In this document: one piece after another, positions 5,585-48,753 of the stretch
Layout: each line of letters opens with the position of its first letter
Position numbering within the stretch: position 1 is the first letter of the stretch
DNA from: an uncultured Actinomycetota bacterium
GTDB lineage: Bacteria; Actinomycetota; Humimicrobiia; Humimicrobiales; Humimicrobiaceae
Assembly (NCBI GenBank): GCA_964616545.1
Contig: CAZTUA010000053.1
Coordinates: 15,061-79,060, forward strand
Length of the DNA: 64,000 nt
Direction: 5' to 3'
Position numbers and translations under genes: made by a program
Notes under the pieces: generated by a model
Told to the model about the DNA's origin: nothing
What the model saw: only the letters and a program-made list of their open reading frames with translations
Databases searched by the model: none

Positions 5585-5660
5585 TGGTGGAGATGAGCGG
5601 GATCGAACCGCTGACCTCCTGCTTGCAAGGCAGGCGCTCTCCCAACTGAGCTACACCCCC
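5585..5660 (-). tRNA. tRNA-Ala (anticodon TGC)
   Basis: rc reads GGGGGTGTAGCTCAGTTGGGAGAGCGCCTGCCTTGCAAGCAGGAGGTCAGCGGTTCGATCCCGCTCATCTCCACCA; cloverleaf with GC acceptor stem, TGC anticodon, encoded CCA. Confidence 0.9.
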
Positions 5661-5674
5661 ACATTTTAAAAAAA

Positions 5675-5752
5675 TGGTGGGCCTATCTGGACTCGAACCA
5701 GAGGCCTCATCCTTATCAGGGATGCGCTCTAACCATCTGAGCTATAGGCCCC
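5675..5752 (-). tRNA. tRNA-Ile (anticodon GAT)
   Basis: rc reads GGGGCCTATAGCTCAGATGGTTAGAGCGCATCCCTGATAAGGATGAGGCCTCTGGTTCGAGTCCAGATAGGCCCACCA; GAT anticodon, encoded CCA. Confidence 0.9.
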
Positions 5753-15808: not shown

Positions 15809-18511
15809 ATGAAAAATTCAAGTAATAAAATAAAAATTACCATTAACAGCAAACCCTATTACTGCTCGCCGGGATGCAGTGTTCTTGAAGCCTGTCTTGA
15901 GAATAATATTTTTGTTCCCCACCTGTGCTATGACCCGAGACTCAAATCTCAGGGAGCATGCAGGCTCTGCGTTGTTGAGATAGAAGGAATGCCGGAAGCA
16001 GCTGCTTCGTGTGTAACACAGGTAAGAGAAGGAATGAAAGTCAGGACAGACACCCCCCGCATAAGAGAGCTCGTAAAAACAAATCTTGAGCTGATAATAT
16101 CAGACCATCCTCTTGATTGCATGACCTGTGAGTCATCAGGAGATTGCATGCTGCAGGACCTTGCTTATATTTATGGCATTAAAGAAGTTCCATATAAGGG
16201 GAAAATCCATGAAAAGAAAGTTCTTGAAGATAATCCCTTTATACTAAGAGATAACCAGAAATGCATACTCTGCGGCAGATGTGTAAGAATGTGTGATGAA
16301 ATTGTGGGAGCCAGCGCCATTGGTTATGCCGGTAGGGGCTTTGAGAGTGAAATAGTTCCCGCATTTGAACAATCATTAAAAGAAACAGACTGTGTATTCT
16401 GCGGTAATTGCATCTCAACCTGCCCATCCGGCGCACTGCAGTCAAAACCTTACGCTGGCAAAGCCCGCATCTCCGGAACAGAAAAAATTCAGACCGTCTG
16501 CCCCTACTGCGGAGTGGGCTGTATAATTGATCTACATATCAGGAATAATAAAATTGTAAATGTAACCTCGGAAGTAGGAAAACATGTAAATAAAGGCAGT
16601 CTCTGCGTTAAAGGAAAATTCGGGCATGAATTTGTAGACAGCCCGGAAAGGCTTAAAGATCCCCTGATAAAAACACGGGACAGCGGATTTAAAAAAATAA
16701 GCTGGGAGAAAGCAATAGAAACTGTTTCGGACAGGCTGAGGACAATAAAGGATAAATACGGACCTGACTCTGTTGCTGTTTTAAGCTCTGCGAAGTGTAC
16801 AAATGAAGAAAATTTTTTAATGTCTAAATTAGCCCGGGCTGCAATCGGGACCAACAACATAGACCACTGCGCCCGCCTCTGCCATGCATCAACAATCACC
16901 GGTCTGGTGCAAACTTTTGGAAGCGGAGCAATGACAAATTCAATTGAGGATATAAAATGCGCTGATGCTGCTATAATAATCGGTTCAAATACAACGGAAG
17001 CTCACCCTGTGATAGGATATGAGATTATAAGGTGTGTTCAGGAAAATGGACTGAAACTTATCGTAATAGACCCGAGAAATATTCCCATAACAAAATATGC
17101 AGCTGTTCACCTGAGGCAAAAACCTGGAACTGATACTGCTGTTATTCTGGGAATTATAAAACTTATCTATGAGAACAATCTGCATGATAAAAATTTTATT
17201 GAAACAAGAACTGAACTTTTTGATGATTTTATAAAATGTTTTTCATCGTATACCCCCGAAAAAGTAGCAAAAATCTCCGGAGTTAACATTGCAGATCTTG
17301 TAAAGGCCGCGGATATTTATGGATCAGCAGAGAATGCTTCCATATTTTATGCAATGGGAATCACCCAGCATACATCCGGCACAGATAATGTCGTAGCCCT
17401 TGCAGACCTTGCGCTGCTTACCGGTAATATTGGCAGAAAAGGTACGGGTGTTAATCCATTGAGAGGCCAGAATAATGTACAGGGTGCATGTGATATGGGT
17501 GCGCTGCCGGACCTGCTGAGCGGTTATCAGAGTATTGAAAATGACGAATTGAGGTTGAAATTTGAAAATAAATGGTCAGTGAGTTTACCTGCTAAAAAGG
17601 GTCTGACCGTAACCGAGATCATTGACGGGGCATATTCGGGCAGCATTAAAGCTCTTTATATAATGGGCGAAAATATAATGCTCAGTGACCCTGATTTATT
17701 ACATGTGGCCGCAGCCCTGAAGAAACTTGAATTCCTGGTTGTCCAGGATATTTTCCTGACAGAAACGGGAGAGTTTGCCGATATTGTCCTGCCTGGAGCA
17801 TGTTTTGCAGAAAAAGACGGTACATTCACAAATACAGACAGGAGAATCCAGAGAGTCAGAAAAGCCATTGAGCCTCCAGGTAATTCTATGGCTGACTGGG
17901 AAATTATCAGTATGCTCTCAAACCGCATGGGTTATCCTATGAGCTATAACCACCCTTCGGAGATTATGGATGAAATTGCTTCTCTTACGCCAATATACGG
18001 AGGTATAAATTATAGTAGAATTGATATTGAAGCTTTACAATGGCCCTGCAGGAACTATAGTGACACAGGAACAGATATTCTTCATGTAGATAATTTTACA
18101 AGAGGCAGAGGTAGATTTATTCCCTTCGGGTATTCCCCTCCTGCTGAGACCCCGACCGGTGATTACCCCTTTATTCTTACTACCGGAAGAATTTTATACC
18201 ATTTCCACACCAGAACGATGACCGGCAGGGTTAGCGGTTTAAATGAAATTGCCCCGATAAATCTTGTCCAGATAAATGAAGATGATGCAAAAAGTCTTAA
18301 AATTAAAAGCGGAGATACCGTGGAAGTTAGCTCAAAAAGGGGAAAAATTACTGTATCATCACTGGTAAGTCCGAAAATAAAAAAAGGAGTTGTATTTATA
18401 CCGTTTCATTATGCAAGCTCTCCTGCCAATCTCCTGACCAACCCGGCTCTGGACCCCAGAGCAAAAATACCGGAATTTAAGGCCTGTGCCGTAAATTTAA
18501 GAAAAATTTAA
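15809..18511 (+). CDS. fdhA: Formate dehydrogenase catalytic (alpha) subunit, Mo/W-bisPGD, NAD-linked FdsA/FdhA-type, cysteine variant
   Basis: 900 aa; N-terminal NuoG-like 2Fe-2S + 4Fe-4S domains, MopB domain; active-site context HCARLCHAS has Cys at the position that is Sec in selenoenzymes (no in-frame TGA). Confidence 0.85.
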   Translation: MKNSSNKIKITINSKPYYCSPGCSVLEACLENNIFVPHLCYDPRLKSQGACRLCVVEIEGMPEAAASCVTQVREGMKVRTDTPRIRELVKTNLELIISDHPLDCMTCESSGDCMLQDLAYIYGIKEVPYKGKIHEKKVLEDNPFILRDNQKCILCGRCVRMCDEIVGASAIGYAGRGFESEIVPAFEQSLKETDCVFCGNCISTCPSGALQSKPYAGKARISGTEKIQTVCPYCGVGCIIDLHIRNNKIVNVTSEVGKHVNKGSLCVKGKFGHEFVDSPERLKDPLIKTRDSGFKKISWEKAIETVSDRLRTIKDKYGPDSVAVLSSAKCTNEENFLMSKLARAAIGTNNIDHCARLCHASTITGLVQTFGSGAMTNSIEDIKCADAAIIIGSNTTEAHPVIGYEIIRCVQENGLKLIVIDPRNIPITKYAAVHLRQKPGTDTAVILGIIKLIYENNLHDKNFIETRTELFDDFIKCFSSYTPEKVAKISGVNIADLVKAADIYGSAENASIFYAMGITQHTSGTDNVVALADLALLTGNIGRKGTGVNPLRGQNNVQGACDMGALPDLLSGYQSIENDELRLKFENKWSVSLPAKKGLTVTEIIDGAYSGSIKALYIMGENIMLSDPDLLHVAAALKKLEFLVVQDIFLTETGEFADIVLPGACFAEKDGTFTNTDRRIQRVRKAIEPPGNSMADWEIISMLSNRMGYPMSYNHPSEIMDEIASLTPIYGGINYSRIDIEALQWPCRNYSDTGTDILHVDNFTRGRGRFIPFGYSPPAETPTGDYPFILTTGRILYHFHTRTMTGRVSGLNEIAPINLVQINEDDAKSLKIKSGDTVEVSSKRGKITVSSLVSPKIKKGVVFIPFHYASSPANLLTNPALDPRAKIPEFKACAVNLRKI

Positions 18512-43490: not shown

Positions 43491-43907
43491 TTAAAGGAGC
43501 CTTTTTTCTCCCTTAATTTCTTTAATATCCGTAATATCCTGGGTAACTTCCAGGCATCCTCTGTAATTATCCCTGTTGTCATAAATCGGGAAATACCTGA
43601 TATAAACAAAGCGGTTATCCAGGTTAATCCAGAATTCAGCCACTTCTCTTTTTTTTGCCCTGAAATCATCAAGTATTTTCTGTACTTTATCAATGCTTTT
43701 TTTGGGATGGCAATTCTGAACTTTTAAACCAATTACAGAAGTTGACCTTTTAAATATCCTGCTTTCCGGTTTATTAAAATACCTTACTTCGTCATTCTCT
43801 CCAACAAATGTTATATCAACCGGTATTGTTTCCAGTATAAGTCCAGCCTCTTCAGCGTTTATCTTCCCTGTTTTAAATTCCAGAATCTTTTCGCTGCCCT
43901 TATTCAT
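43491..43907 (-). CDS. DUF438 domain protein
   Basis: 138 aa; blocks PVDITFVGENDEVRYF, VIGLKVQNCHP, VAEFWI, RYFPIYDNRDNYRGCLEVTQDITDIKEIKGEKRLL match the DUF438 family. Confidence 0.5.
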   Translation of the reverse strand: MNKGSEKILEFKTGKINAEEAGLILETIPVDITFVGENDEVRYFNKPESRIFKRSTSVIGLKVQNCHPKKSIDKVQKILDDFRAKKREVAEFWINLDNRFVYIRYFPIYDNRDNYRGCLEVTQDITDIKEIKGEKRLL

Positions 43908-44331
43908 AATATACCTCCTGTAATTTATAAGTTTTTTAAAAAATTCCTCCCTGAATTATTCTTCCTTAAAATCCTTCGCTTTCGATTGGCGGATTTTATT
44001 TTAAGCACATAACTTAAATATATAATCCTTTTTTAAAAAAATAAACAAAATTTATAATCATTTATCATCGCTATTTTATAAATTAATATATATTTTAATT
44101 AATTATAATACTAATATATACATTACTATATATATCTTTTTATTACATCTTGTATCAATATATTTAATAATTAATTTAAATTAAAAATTTTATAAATTTC
44201 TATTGACATTTGTTTTTATATAGTGTATTTTAAACCCGTTAAATTCTTTTAGTTGTGAATGTAAAAAAATTAGATGCTATGAAGTTTTCCTTAAATTTGG
44301 ACGCTTGAGGGAAATGGAGCAAATAGCGTAA

Positions 44332-44357
44332 CCGGCTAATTTAGCCGGTTTTTTTTA
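44332..44357 (+). terminator. Rho-independent terminator closing a short leader/sRNA upstream of the GGDEF-HD-GYP gene
   Basis: CCGGCTAA-T-TTAGCCGG stem (GC-rich core) followed by TTTTTTTT; no plus-strand CDS upstream of it. Confidence 0.6.
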
Positions 44358-44448
44358 TTTCATATAAGAATAAATGACCGGCAAATTGATAAGATAATCT
44401 TAAAATATAATAGAGATATAATTATCATTTTATAGCAGGTTATTTAAA

Positions 44449-46527
44449 ATGTTCTGGCAAAATATAAACTTTTTTATTCCTCTTATTTCTGTAGTTGCTC
44501 TGGCTGTCCTTGGCACCTTTTATATATGGATATACAGAAAAGGAGTCCAGGATATTGCAGGTATCGGGATAATGGTTCTTTCTATTATCTGGATAATGGC
44601 ATATATACTCCAGCAGAGTATAGCACCAGATCATTTAAAAGTGCTTTTTGATAAGATTCAATACACCGGTGTCTTTCTTTTACCGGTTGGACTATTCCTT
44701 ATTGCAGCCGGCTACAGCAATTGCAAAAAAATCTTTAAACCAAAATATATCCTTCTTATCAGTGCATTTCCTGTTATTGCCATCTTTCTTGCCTTTACGA
44801 ATGAAATCCACAGGCTTGTCTGGGCTAATGCAAGTCTTGTTTTATTCGATTCTTTTAGTCTTGTAGTTAAAGAATATAATACCCTGTATTTTATTTCGGT
44901 TCTGTATTCAAGTATCCTGACACTTGCCGGTATAACAATAATAATTACAGACATCGTAAAATCATACAGGAAACCTGACGGACAGAGCCGCTGGAAAAAA
45001 TTTCTTCTTATTCCATATGTATCCATCTCCTGGCTAATAATACTGGCAAAATATCTTGGCTTTAATCCCTTCCCCTACGTAGAGGAGACACCCATAGTAA
45101 CTGTAATTTTCACTCTTGCAATCATTGCAGTACTAAATAAAACACGGATAAGAGAGATAATGCCTGTTGCCTTTGAAACTATTTTTGAAAATATGGATGA
45201 CGGTCTTATACTTGTTGACGGAAAAGAAAATGTTTTAAAACTGAACCCGGCCTCCCTGAAAATATTTAAAACTCAATTCAATGAGATAGCCGGTAAACCA
45301 GTCAACCATCTATTAACAGACCAGGGTGAAAATACAGATATTTTCCTGGGGAATAAAGATTTAAAAATAGGAAATAATGGAAGTCAGTGCTTTTACAATA
45401 CAAAGCAGACAGAGATGAAAAGTGATAAAGGAAAACCCCTCGGCAAAGTAATAGTATTAAGAGATATAACAGAAATAAGAAAAGCAGAAGAGGATATAAA
45501 ATACCTCAGTTTTTACGATAAATTAACCGGTGTTTACAACCGGGCATTCTTTGATATTGAACTAAAAAGACTTAATGCCAGCCGCCAGATGCCGTTAAGT
45601 CTGGTAATAGGAGACGTAAACGGATTAAAATTAACTAATGATGCTTTCGGGCATGCATATGGAGATGAGCTTCTTAAAAAAATTGCGGATATACTTAAAT
45701 CATGTTTCAGAAAAGAAGATATCATAGCCAGGTGGGGTGGAGATGAATTTAGTATTTTAATGCCCAATACATCTTATTCGGCTACCATGCAGATTGTGAA
45801 CCGGGTTCATAAAAAATGCAAAGAATTAAGCACGGATACTATGGTGATAAGTATATCAACAGGGATTGCAACCAAAGAAAGAACCCGCGGGAGCACGGAT
45901 GTATTATTAAAAGAAGCAGAAGACAGAATGTACAAACACAAGCTTATGGAGAATCAGAGTATCCGCAGCTCTATAATAGCTTCACTTGGAAAAGCTCTTG
46001 AAGAAAAAGATTATGAAACAGAAGAGCATACCAGAAGAATGAAAAAATATAGTTTACTCTTTGGCCAGTTGCTTAAACTCCAGGATTCCAGGCTGGATGA
46101 ATTGAGCCTTCTGTCTAAGTTACATGATATTGGAAAAATAGGCATACCCGATAATATTATTTTAAAACCAGGAAAACTTAATAAAAATGAGTGGAAAATT
46201 ATGAGCAAGCATTCAGAAATCGGTTACAGAATAGCACTGTCCACTCCAGATCTCGCTCACATAGCAAAGTCTATTCTTCATCATCACGAAAGGTGGGATG
46301 GAAGTGGTTATCCTTACGGCCTGTCTGAATTTGAAATCCCGATAGCTTCAAGAATAATATCTATTATTGACGCATACGATGCCATGGTAAATGACAGACC
46401 CTATAGAAAAGCTATGACAAGAGAAGCCGCCATAGAAGAATTAAATAAATGCAGGGGCACACAATTTGATCCTGCTCTTGTAGATGTTTTTATGAATAAA
46501 TTACTCTTAAAAGAATGCGTAAGCTGA
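44449..46527 (+). CDS. Membrane sensor with 7TM N-terminal domain, PAS-like region, GGDEF diguanylate cyclase and HD-GYP phosphodiesterase domains
   Basis: 692 aa; GGDEF motif in context RWGGDEFSIL with upstream YDKLTGVYNR; HD-GYP motifs HD(IGK) and HHERWDGSGYP. Confidence 0.85.
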   Translation: MFWQNINFFIPLISVVALAVLGTFYIWIYRKGVQDIAGIGIMVLSIIWIMAYILQQSIAPDHLKVLFDKIQYTGVFLLPVGLFLIAAGYSNCKKIFKPKYILLISAFPVIAIFLAFTNEIHRLVWANASLVLFDSFSLVVKEYNTLYFISVLYSSILTLAGITIIITDIVKSYRKPDGQSRWKKFLLIPYVSISWLIILAKYLGFNPFPYVEETPIVTVIFTLAIIAVLNKTRIREIMPVAFETIFENMDDGLILVDGKENVLKLNPASLKIFKTQFNEIAGKPVNHLLTDQGENTDIFLGNKDLKIGNNGSQCFYNTKQTEMKSDKGKPLGKVIVLRDITEIRKAEEDIKYLSFYDKLTGVYNRAFFDIELKRLNASRQMPLSLVIGDVNGLKLTNDAFGHAYGDELLKKIADILKSCFRKEDIIARWGGDEFSILMPNTSYSATMQIVNRVHKKCKELSTDTMVISISTGIATKERTRGSTDVLLKEAEDRMYKHKLMENQSIRSSIIASLGKALEEKDYETEEHTRRMKKYSLLFGQLLKLQDSRLDELSLLSKLHDIGKIGIPDNIILKPGKLNKNEWKIMSKHSEIGYRIALSTPDLAHIAKSILHHHERWDGSGYPYGLSEFEIPIASRIISIIDAYDAMVNDRPYRKAMTREAAIEELNKCRGTQFDPALVDVFMNKLLLKECVS

Positions 46528-46587: not shown

Positions 46588-48753
46588 ATGGGGAGAATTA
46601 AATCTAATAAGCTGTTTAAATGCTCTTTAACACTGTTTATATATGCAGTAATATTTTTCTTTCTTGTATTTAACTTACCTGAATATATTTATACTGATGA
46701 TATTGGGCCTGAAAATAATATTGAATCGGGAGAAAATAATGAGTCCGGTGAAGATGAAGAACCGGGTGATGATGATCCCGGAGATGACGGGGAGCCGGGA
46801 GAAGAGCCAGGGTCCGATGATGATGAAGAACCGGGAGAAAACTTAAAGCCCCATCCAATAGATGAAGAACCGGGTGATGATGATTCCGGAGATGACGGGG
46901 AGCCGGGAGAAGAGCCAGCGTCCGATGATAATGAAGAACCGGGAGAAAACTTAAAGCCCCATCCAATTATGGTACTCAATTTTACAGATACAGCCTCAGT
47001 TAATTTTGATGGTTCAAAATCCTTTGATACAGATGGAACAATCATATCATACAGCTGGGACTTTGGTGACGGAAATACCGGAAGCGGAGTGACTGCCGCC
47101 CATACATACAGCGAAGACGGGATTTATCTTACAACACTTACTGTAACAGATAACGGAGGGCTGCAGAATACAATAAGTAGAAATGTAAATATAAGGTCCG
47201 GTGAAGATGAAGAACCGGGTGATGATGATTCCGGAGATGACGAGGAGCCGGGAGAAGAGCCAGGGTCCGATGATGATGAAGAACCGCGAGAAAACTTAAA
47301 GCCCCATCCAATTATGCAATGCAGTTTCCCTGATATTGATACAGTATATCTTGATGGTTCGGATTCTTTTGATACAGACGGAACCATTATCTATTATCAC
47401 TGGGATTTCGGGGATGGCAATACAGAAAGCGGAGTGACTGCCGCCCATACATATAGTGAATCCGGGATTTACCGTGTAACACTTACTATAACAGATAACG
47501 GGGGTCTGCAGAATTCATGTGAAAAAAATGTAAATATTAGTTCCAAAAAACCCAATCCAATTATGCAATATACTTTTTCAGAAAACGATGGAGCCACCGT
47601 AAATTTTGATGGTTCGGATTCTTTTGATATTGACGGTACAATAGTATCCTACAGCTGGGACTTTGGCGACGGGAACACTGGAAGGGGTTCAACTATTAAC
47701 CATACATACGATACTCAAGGACTTTACCGTGTAACACTTACTGTAACAGATAATGATGAGCTGGAGAACTTATGTGAAAAAAATTTAAATATAAAGTCCG
47801 GTGATGATGAAGAGCCCGGTAAAGAGCCGGGACCCGGTGAAAGCAAAAAGTCTGAAAATGATAATAGCCCCGGGCAAAGCAAAAAACCTGAAGAAAGTAA
47901 GAAGCCTGAAGACAATGAGGGCGCCGGCAAAAAAGATATGGTTCCTGCAGAGAATGCCGTTGCCGCTACTGGAAGTATAAAACCCGGTGAAAATACCGGT
48001 AACGCTATTGGAGATACAAAATCCGGTGAAAATACAGTTGCAGCCATAGTATTTCCAGAACTTAAAGAAAATAAAAAGCCCCATGCAAAGATTGAATATA
48101 GTTTCTCAAAAACTAATGCAAACAAGGTATATGTTAATGGCTCGGATTCCTTTGATACAGACGGGACAATTATTTATTACCACTGGGATTTCGGGGATGG
48201 AAATACAGAAACCAGGGCATCTTCTACCCATACCTATGGTAAGCCAGGTCAATACAGCATAACCCTTACAGTAACAGATAATGAAGGCCTCATGAATTGC
48301 ACCAGCCGTACCGTTAATATAAAATCAAATAAAATAAATAATACAGATAATAATTATAACGAAAGCATTCCGCATAATAACAGAGAAGAACATATAAAAA
48401 ATATGGGTGTAAATTTGAATGAATTTAAAGATATAAAAATCAGTCCGCCGGAAGAACCAGATGATCTTACACTTAAAGCTAACAATATATTGAAAAAACT
48501 ATTGAATGTTAAACAGGATAAAAATGTAGATATACCTGGCATAAATATAAATAGCATAGGAGAGCTATTAGATATCCAGAAAATAACCGAAAATCATAAT
48601 CTTAAAGAAGTAATAGACCTTGATGAGCTCATCGATATTAACTACGAAAGAGATACAGGCAAATACAGAGATAACATTCCGGATAAAAAGTTAAAATTAC
48701 CGGAGTTTTTATTAAATTTCTGGAATAAATTCAAAGAGCTTGTGACACTATAG
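46588..48753 (+). CDS. Secreted/surface protein with four PKD domains separated by acidic low-complexity linkers
   Basis: 721 aa; N-terminal signal/anchor; four repeats of the PKD hallmark WDFGDGNT...H.Y...G.Y.VTLTVTDN; EEPGDDD acidic linkers. Confidence 0.75.
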   Translation: MGRIKSNKLFKCSLTLFIYAVIFFFLVFNLPEYIYTDDIGPENNIESGENNESGEDEEPGDDDPGDDGEPGEEPGSDDDEEPGENLKPHPIDEEPGDDDSGDDGEPGEEPASDDNEEPGENLKPHPIMVLNFTDTASVNFDGSKSFDTDGTIISYSWDFGDGNTGSGVTAAHTYSEDGIYLTTLTVTDNGGLQNTISRNVNIRSGEDEEPGDDDSGDDEEPGEEPGSDDDEEPRENLKPHPIMQCSFPDIDTVYLDGSDSFDTDGTIIYYHWDFGDGNTESGVTAAHTYSESGIYRVTLTITDNGGLQNSCEKNVNISSKKPNPIMQYTFSENDGATVNFDGSDSFDIDGTIVSYSWDFGDGNTGRGSTINHTYDTQGLYRVTLTVTDNDELENLCEKNLNIKSGDDEEPGKEPGPGESKKSENDNSPGQSKKPEESKKPEDNEGAGKKDMVPAENAVAATGSIKPGENTGNAIGDTKSGENTVAAIVFPELKENKKPHAKIEYSFSKTNANKVYVNGSDSFDTDGTIIYYHWDFGDGNTETRASSTHTYGKPGQYSITLTVTDNEGLMNCTSRTVNIKSNKINNTDNNYNESIPHNNREEHIKNMGVNLNEFKDIKISPPEEPDDLTLKANNILKKLLNVKQDKNVDIPGININSIGELLDIQKITENHNLKEVIDLDELIDINYERDTGKYRDNIPDKKLKLPEFLLNFWNKFKELVTL
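46747..47312 (+). repeat. Three near-identical ~110-bp direct repeats (46747-46860, 46861-46968, 47200-47312) encoding the acidic EEPGDDDSGDDGEPGEEPGSDDDEEPGENLKPHPI linker
   Basis: Seen directly; copies differ by only a few nucleotides; two are tandem, the third is ~230 bp downstream. Confidence 0.8.

Follow-up and report, generated by a model that had tools for sequence, protein, structure and literature searches.

A predicted class II cyclic-di-GMP riboswitch in the leader of a GGDEF-HD-GYP sensor gene from an uncultured Actinomycetota bacterium

The leader of a c-di-GMP-turnover gene in an uncultured Actinomycetota bacterium very probably carries a class II c-di-GMP riboswitch, which would act as a transcriptional ON switch of this gene and thereby form part of an autoregulatory loop. 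The locus lies in a stretch of 64,000 nucleotides which is called here the window. The assignment of the leader RNA to class II is supported by the presence of every defining feature of the Rfam family c-di-GMP-II (RF01786) that can be tested in silico; from the sequence we also infer ligand binding and ON logic in vivo. The leader adds one more member to an RNA family that is well known, and it involves no new mechanism. Its value is that the regulation of a sensor operon from uncultured bacteria, so far uncharacterised in other respects, can be annotated with confidence; expression of the operon should mirror the c-di-GMP level of the cell and in turn influence it. The features of the locus are collected in Table 1.

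The whole window was searched with cmscan at the Rfam gathering thresholds, and three tRNAs and one riboswitch were returned. The riboswitch was c-di-GMP-II, which scored 68.8 bits where the gathering score is 53.5 (15 bits above it); the E value of 2.4e-13 over the 64 kb is far beyond chance for an RNA element. The match ran over model positions 1-84 of 84 and was not truncated. A permissive Rfam scan was also carried out on positions 43900-44500; there the class I family, c-di-GMP-I (RF01051), gave no match even at E values up to 10. A second family of the clan CL00127 showed a weaker overlapping match at the permissive threshold, which fell below its own gathering score and was outscored by RF01786. 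The matches to AaHKsRNA82, Ysr202, Trp_leader and others in the same scan were driven by the terminator and were far below gathering, and these candidates were discarded. A previous inspection of the same DNA, made without database searches (the sequence-only reading), had proposed at this place a conditionally terminating leader, probably a c-di-GMP riboswitch, though no consensus could be matched by eye, and the full-length match bears this out and settles the class, with c-di-GMP-II found and c-di-GMP-I absent.

By the cmscan alignment, all 18 pairs of the nested helices P1, P2 and P3 are standard in the window, and the conserved core (GA after P1, UGA, GGAG and AACCGGC) is completely present and invariant in the 8 orthologues. 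The sequence-only reading had also noticed that an ACGCT...AGCGT helix could form next to the terminator stem. This helix was recovered and is the class II pseudoknot; with respect to the Rfam consensus GCAC/GUGC, two of its pairs are altered on both strands and the pairing is kept. The window departs from the consensus at two conserved positions, both of which are A in it: U32, in the P3 loop, and G61. Of 125 relatives, about 30 have A and about 80 have G at position 61, so that the A there looks like ordinary variation. The ligand contacts were placed tentatively on the leader according to the contact positions of 3Q3Z, the crystal structure of the C. acetobutylicum class II aptamer.

Table 1. 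Position of the riboswitch elements and of the genes downstream in the window, and of tandem aptamers on related metagenomic contigs.
Feature	Position	Strand	Details
Sigma-70-type promoter	44203-44231	+	-35 TTGACA 44203-44208; 17-nt spacer; -10 TATTTT 44226-44231
c-di-GMP-II aptamer	44263-44346	+	RF01786 full-length match
P1, 5' strand AAAUUAG	44267-44273	+	pairs with CUAAUUU 44336-44342; 7 pairs, one G-C
P2	44275-44321	+	UGC 44275-44277 with GCA 44319-44321; cmscan alignment
Kink-turn strands	44278-44283 and 44316-44318	+	UAUGAA and GGA; enclosed by P2; cmscan alignment
P3 hairpin	44284-44291 with 44308-44315	+	loop 44292-44307; cmscan alignment; compensatory changes in orthologues and in the wider set
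Pseudoknot	44301-44329	+	P3-loop ACGCU 44301-44305 with AGCGU 44325-44329; 5 of 5 pairs standard
Intrinsic terminator (predicted)	44330-44356	+	AACCGGCUA 44330-44338, loop AUU, UAGCCGGUU 44342-44350, U-run 44349-44356
HisKA_7TM-PAS-GGDEF-HD_5 (HD-GYP) protein, 692 aa	44449-46527	+	Pfam
Protein of 721 aa	46588-48753	+	signal anchor at the N-terminus; acidic linkers; four PKD domains; conserved domain of about 100 aa at the C-terminus; Pfam PKD
Tandem aptamers, metagenomic contigs	L014 11085-11308; L049 5118-5353; L051 1335-1584; L060 3589-3801; L066 234-473

A review states that the class II aptamer also accepts circular analogues such as c-GpAp, with a KD of 10 nM or better (PMC9495366), and we considered a class II look-alike of altered specificity, which would recognise 3'3'-cGAMP or another dinucleotide in the way of GEMM-Ib or of the c-di-GMP-II-GAG and c-di-GMP-II-GCG variants. 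The overlap with one other CL00127 family and the match of the HD-GYP domain of the downstream protein with a cGAMP-specific phosphodiesterase (PDB 5z7c) would agree with it. The score of that clan competitor is lower, however, and RF01786 alone reaches gathering in the window; besides, neither the AA of AACCG nor the GA after P1 is altered, and the GGDEF domain keeps the N...D pair that indicates a c-di-GMP rather than a cGAMP synthase. Hypr GGDEF enzymes carry Ser at the site of this pair, and N...D marks the c-di-GMP synthases. An altered specificity is thus extremely improbable in our estimation, and the leader is treated below as a c-di-GMP aptamer.

The 3' end of the aptamer runs into a G+C-rich palindrome, CCGGCTAATTTAGCCGG, at 44332-44348, which extends to AACCGGCTA/TAGCCGGTT at 44330-44350 and is followed by eight T at 44349-44356. 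The consensus scan predicted here a terminator of 9 pairs, 5 of them G-C, with a 3-nt loop and U8, and the computed energy of its hairpin was -13 kcal/mol. The shorter stem with its T8 had been pointed out in the sequence-only reading, and so had the improbability of a minus-strand origin; both points stand. In the reverse reading the hairpin is followed by TACGCT, with no T-run, and there is no convergent minus-strand gene, and a minus-strand terminator was accordingly rejected.

The 5' arm of the terminator, AACCGGCUA, is made up of the conserved aptamer core AACCGG and of the three bases with which the P1 3' strand begins; the rest of that strand supplies the hairpin loop and one base, the first, of the 3' arm. 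Bases 44330-44342 are therefore common to the aptamer and the terminator, and the two folds are mutually exclusive. This refines the sequence-only reading, whose coordinates are all confirmed: the aptamer and the terminator overlap and are not placed side by side.

The energies computed for the competing structures were -7.3 kcal/mol for the nested helices of the aptamer, -0.5 kcal/mol for P1 alone and -19.5 kcal/mol for the terminator together with P2 and P3. In the absence of ligand, the terminator state was thus about 12 kcal/mol more stable than the aptamer fold by computation, and the minimum-free-energy folds always contained the terminator. The pattern was alike in 8 of 8 loci (P1 from -1.7 to +3.9 kcal/mol, terminator from -10 to -13 kcal/mol). 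By a rough estimate in which kinetics is ignored, the pseudoknot (-5 to -6.6 kcal/mol) and a ligand of pM-nM affinity (-11 to -14 kcal/mol) can offset the gap. In some orthologues P1 has no more than 4-5 pairs, so that switching must lean on the tertiary and ligand energy.

Two further pairings of the minimum-free-energy folds, an apo-state helix AUGCUAU/AUAGCGU and the pairing of an A-run (44261-44269) with the U-run, were conserved in no orthologues and were set aside. Attenuation by a leader peptide was also rejected: judged by eye, the AUG frames of the leader have 1-9 codons only, lie inside the conserved aptamer and lack a Shine-Dalgarno sequence.

Given that the terminator state is the more stable one without ligand, an ON switch is predicted, in which c-di-GMP prevents termination. 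Transcription would start near 44238 from a conserved sigma-70-type promoter, and the nascent RNA would form P3, P2 and the kink-turn. In the presence of c-di-GMP, the P3 loop and AGCGU would pair in the pseudoknot and AACCGG and the weak, AU-rich P1 would close around the ligand. The ligand-bound fold would then occupy 44330-44342 and block the terminator hairpin, so that RNA polymerase would read on into the 7TM-PAS-GGDEF-HD-GYP gene and probably into the PKD surface-protein gene too. When no ligand is bound, P1 would be too weak, the -13 kcal/mol hairpin with its U8 would form, and an RNA of about 115 nt would be released.

The same aptamer might be wired with the opposite logic, as an OFF switch in which c-di-GMP promotes termination; many class I (GEMM-I) leaders work in this way. 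Either wiring is possible for a riboswitch class, and the minimum-free-energy folds point to termination as the default here. Nevertheless, both folds need 44330-44342, and whatever stabilises the aptamer must weaken the terminator; there is no conserved element that would act as a separate anti-terminator. In C. difficile, the class II riboswitches that have been tested turn transcription ON, whereas the class I leaders of that organism are OFF switches (PMC11477304). For these reasons OFF logic is judged very unlikely indeed, and the prediction of an ON switch is kept.

The conservation of the arrangement was examined in orthologous loci. The exact protein encoded at 44449 is also found on JGI and Logan metagenome contigs, and eight orthologues with 67-80% amino-acid identity are present in species-representative genomes, all of them labelled uncultured Actinomycetota. 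The eighth of these (L006) was left out, its upstream DNA being an N-filled scaffold gap, and the 8-locus comparisons accordingly consist of the window plus the other seven loci. RF01786 was matched with 64-73 bits in 7 of 7 orthologous loci with contiguous upstream DNA, at 163-188 nt before the start codon; in the window the aptamer is 186 nt upstream of 44449. Across the 8 loci the pairs of the aptamer were 94% standard, with compensatory changes in P3, and the terminator was likewise 94% paired, a G-C to A-U compensatory change being found in 3 of the 8. The ACGCU/AGCGU pseudoknot was invariant in the 8 orthologues, and rare relatives show further compensated versions of it.

A pattern search for the ACGCU/AGCGU version of the pseudoknot retrieved at least 120 metagenomic contigs. 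A covariance model was built from the 8 leaders, and with it 125 aptamers were aligned, giving 113 distinct rows. In these, 93% of the cells were paired and 21 of the 23 pairs changed on both sides, P1 being among the covarying helices. An alignment fitted to the model leans towards structure, but the margin is still large, as the pairing values of the 113 relatives were reached by none of 500 shuffles and slid controls were 26-43% paired. A terminator 5' arm based on AACCGRC was found in 79 of 131 related metagenomic aptamers, and the direct overlap of a terminator with this core appears to be a general ON-switch platform of the subgroup.

Some metagenomic contigs carry a tandem pair of class II aptamers, separated by 130-170 nt (Table 1); the window has a single one. 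In 14 related aptamers (L015, L021, L072 and L076, for example) a second CL00127 family passes its own gathering score, though it scores below RF01786; for the window aptamer no second CL00127 family at its own gathering score was seen in the whole-window cmscan. The boundary between the standard class and the GAG/GCG variants may be soft in this subgroup.

The leader occupies part of an intergenic region of 541 bp, between a divergent PAS_10 gene (43491-43907, minus strand) and the plus-strand gene that starts at 44449. There is no plus-strand gene upstream of the terminator, and hence none for which it would serve as 3' end. This agrees with the sequence-only reading, which had seen no protein-coding gene on this strand ahead of the terminator and had, in addition, picked out the TTGACA hexamer. 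The hexamer is present and pairs with TATTTT at a 17-nt spacing, a combination which gave 10/12 matches in the consensus scan. As a class, promoter-like sites in this AT-rich region are at chance level, with 7 found against 8.2 expected, but this particular one is conserved: TTGACA, a spacer of exactly 17 nt and a TAWWTT -10 are kept in 8 of 8 loci (the window and the seven others). Between the -10 and P1 the 8 leaders have from 14 to 42 nt. From the position of the promoter, the transcription start is placed near 44238.

The spacer from the U-run to the start codon measures 92 nt, and the consensus scan marked in it weak promoter-like hexamers with 9/12 matches, at 44400-44428 and 44422-44450, which could allow riboswitch-independent expression of the downstream gene. 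This layout, with a strong terminator after the aptamer, could also be read as serving mainly to make an independent RNA of about 115 nt (an sRNA acting in trans or a sponge for c-di-GMP), with the downstream gene transcribed from its own promoter. Hexamers of this kind, however, occur at the chance frequency given above for AT-rich DNA. Moreover, the aptamer keeps its place before this gene, at almost the same distance, in 8 species and on further metagenomic contigs, and the overlap of aptamer and terminator is the usual cis-regulatory design. A free-standing RNA is, to our judgement, very unlikely. The short terminated transcript suggested in the sequence-only reading is retained in the riboswitch model, as the RNA of about 115 nt predicted at low c-di-GMP; its interpretation as an sRNA is not needed.

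Two other features were observed in the same intergenic region. About 200 bp at 44000-44200, upstream of the riboswitch promoter and between the divergent genes, are extremely A+T-rich, with many TATA and TAAT runs, and could be an UP-element or curved-DNA region. A weak terminator-like hairpin of 6 pairs, followed by TTTTATTTTA, is located at 43975-43993 (plus strand), just upstream of the divergent PAS_10 gene; since it has no plus-strand gene to terminate, it is probably a chance occurrence or part of the leader of the PAS_10 gene.

The regulated gene encodes a sensor in which both catalytic domains look competent, to judge from their motifs. The GGDEF domain (Pfam E value 5e-35) has in translation the intact series RKED-IIARW-GGDEF, that is, the I-site RxxD five residues upstream and the active site, and its guanine-contacting N...D pair is contained in NDAFGHAYGD, with a spacing equivalent to that of N335/D344 in PleD. 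In the HD-GYP domain (HD_5, E value 9.5e-37) the motifs HDIGK and HHERWDGSGYP are intact, and about 180 residues of it align with PDB 4mcw at an E value of 7e-42. That structure belongs to PmGH, the HD-GYP c-di-GMP phosphodiesterase of Persephonella marina, with which the regulated protein has the HD...HHExxDGxGYP motifs in common; unlike PmGH, the regulated protein joins its HD-GYP domain to a 7TM-PAS sensor and to an apparently active GGDEF domain with an I-site.

Because the GGDEF, I-site and HD-GYP motifs are intact, the riboswitch circuit would constitute an autoregulatory loop. In GGDEF enzymes the cyclase undergoes product inhibition through the I-site. Since the cyclase would be inhibited by its product in this manner, negative feedback via the HD-GYP domain seems somewhat more likely to us than positive feedback, as a guess.

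The gene that follows, at a distance of 61 nt, encodes a protein with PKD domains. No plus-strand terminator-like site was detected by the scan in this 61-nt gap, and a homologue of the PKD gene comes after the GGDEF gene in 7 of the 7 orthologous loci that extend past the latter. It is thus probably co-transcribed as the second gene of the operon, and its product would be a co-induced surface protein, which would fit the regulation of adhesins and pili by class II riboswitches (PMC11477304). The orthologues of the PKD gene keep only about 38 aa at the N-terminus and about 100 aa at the C-terminus, and the number of PKD units differs among them. Within the gene, tandem repeats of 108 bp (97% identical) and 345 bp were observed at 46752-47514 (plus strand); they encode the acidic Pro/Glu/Asp linkers and PKD modules, which suggests rapid evolution of repeat number in a surface protein. 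Among 83 ORFs downstream of the related metagenomic aptamers, GGDEF with HD_5 was the commonest pair of domains (8 of the 83, 6 of these with HisKA_7TM), and the next commonest domains were those of surface proteins (SpaA, Flg_new, DUF7507, sortase) and glycosyltransferases.

By comparison with RF01786, the leader has the same P1-P2-P3 fold, kink-turn strands, P3-loop pseudoknot and AACCG core, as well as the 5' leader position, the terminator platform with predicted ON logic and the association with c-di-GMP-turnover and cell-surface genes. It departs from the family in the sequence of the pseudoknot, in the lack of a group I ribozyme partner and in its hosts, which are labelled uncultured Actinomycetota, the window having about 37% G+C. 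The class was reportedly described by Lee et al. 2010 and its structure by Smith et al. 2011; the Cdi2 riboswitches of C. difficile belong to it as well. With c-di-GMP-I (GEMM-I) the leader would have in common the ligand, the association with cyclase, phosphodiesterase and surface genes and the use of terminator platforms in leaders, but the fold of that family is unrelated. The CL00127 variants c-di-GMP-II-GAG and c-di-GMP-II-GCG are alike in overall fold, and one of them is the weak, outscored match mentioned above.

The link of the motif with genes for c-di-GMP synthesis and degradation was noted already at its discovery (PMC12564702), tandem and terminator-based arrangements of class II are known (PMC9481103), and clostridia and Deinococcus are given in reviews as its typical hosts (PMC9495176). 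A literature search on class II riboswitches in Actinobacteria gave nothing relevant. What is mildly new is the presence of the class in hosts labelled Actinomycetota and its conserved pairing with a bifunctional sensor and a PKD surface protein. The range of class II is in this way modestly extended to Actinomycetota-labelled genomes, and the aptamers are abundant in sediment, soda-lake and hypersaline metagenomes. A wider proposal, which we put forward tentatively and hold to be somewhat less than an even chance, is that class II riboswitches belong to the regulatory repertoire of a low-G+C, deep-branching lineage labelled Actinomycetota and that one of these riboswitches is a conserved RNA-based homeostat, in which c-di-GMP induces an I-site cyclase/HD-GYP sensor together with a PKD surface protein. 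If this were true, control of the messenger set-point would be coupled directly to an output at the cell surface.

Some observations concern other parts of the window. No rRNA was matched by the Rfam cmscan anywhere in its 64 kb; adjoining genes for tRNA-Ile(GAT) and tRNA-Ala(TGC), a pair usual in 16S-23S spacers, are located at 5585-5751 (minus strand). A sub-threshold match to SECIS_3 was found at 16877-16935 (plus strand), with 34.4 bits against a gathering score of 63 and an E value of 6e-4. It lies inside the ORF 15809-18511, which encodes a molybdopterin oxidoreductase of 900 aa resembling the alpha subunit of formate dehydrogenase, with the active-site motif NIDHCARLCH and a TGC cysteine codon. 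The selenoprotein versions of this oxidoreductase carry UGA at that codon, and the ORF is probably a Cys homologue that keeps a SECIS-like sequence.
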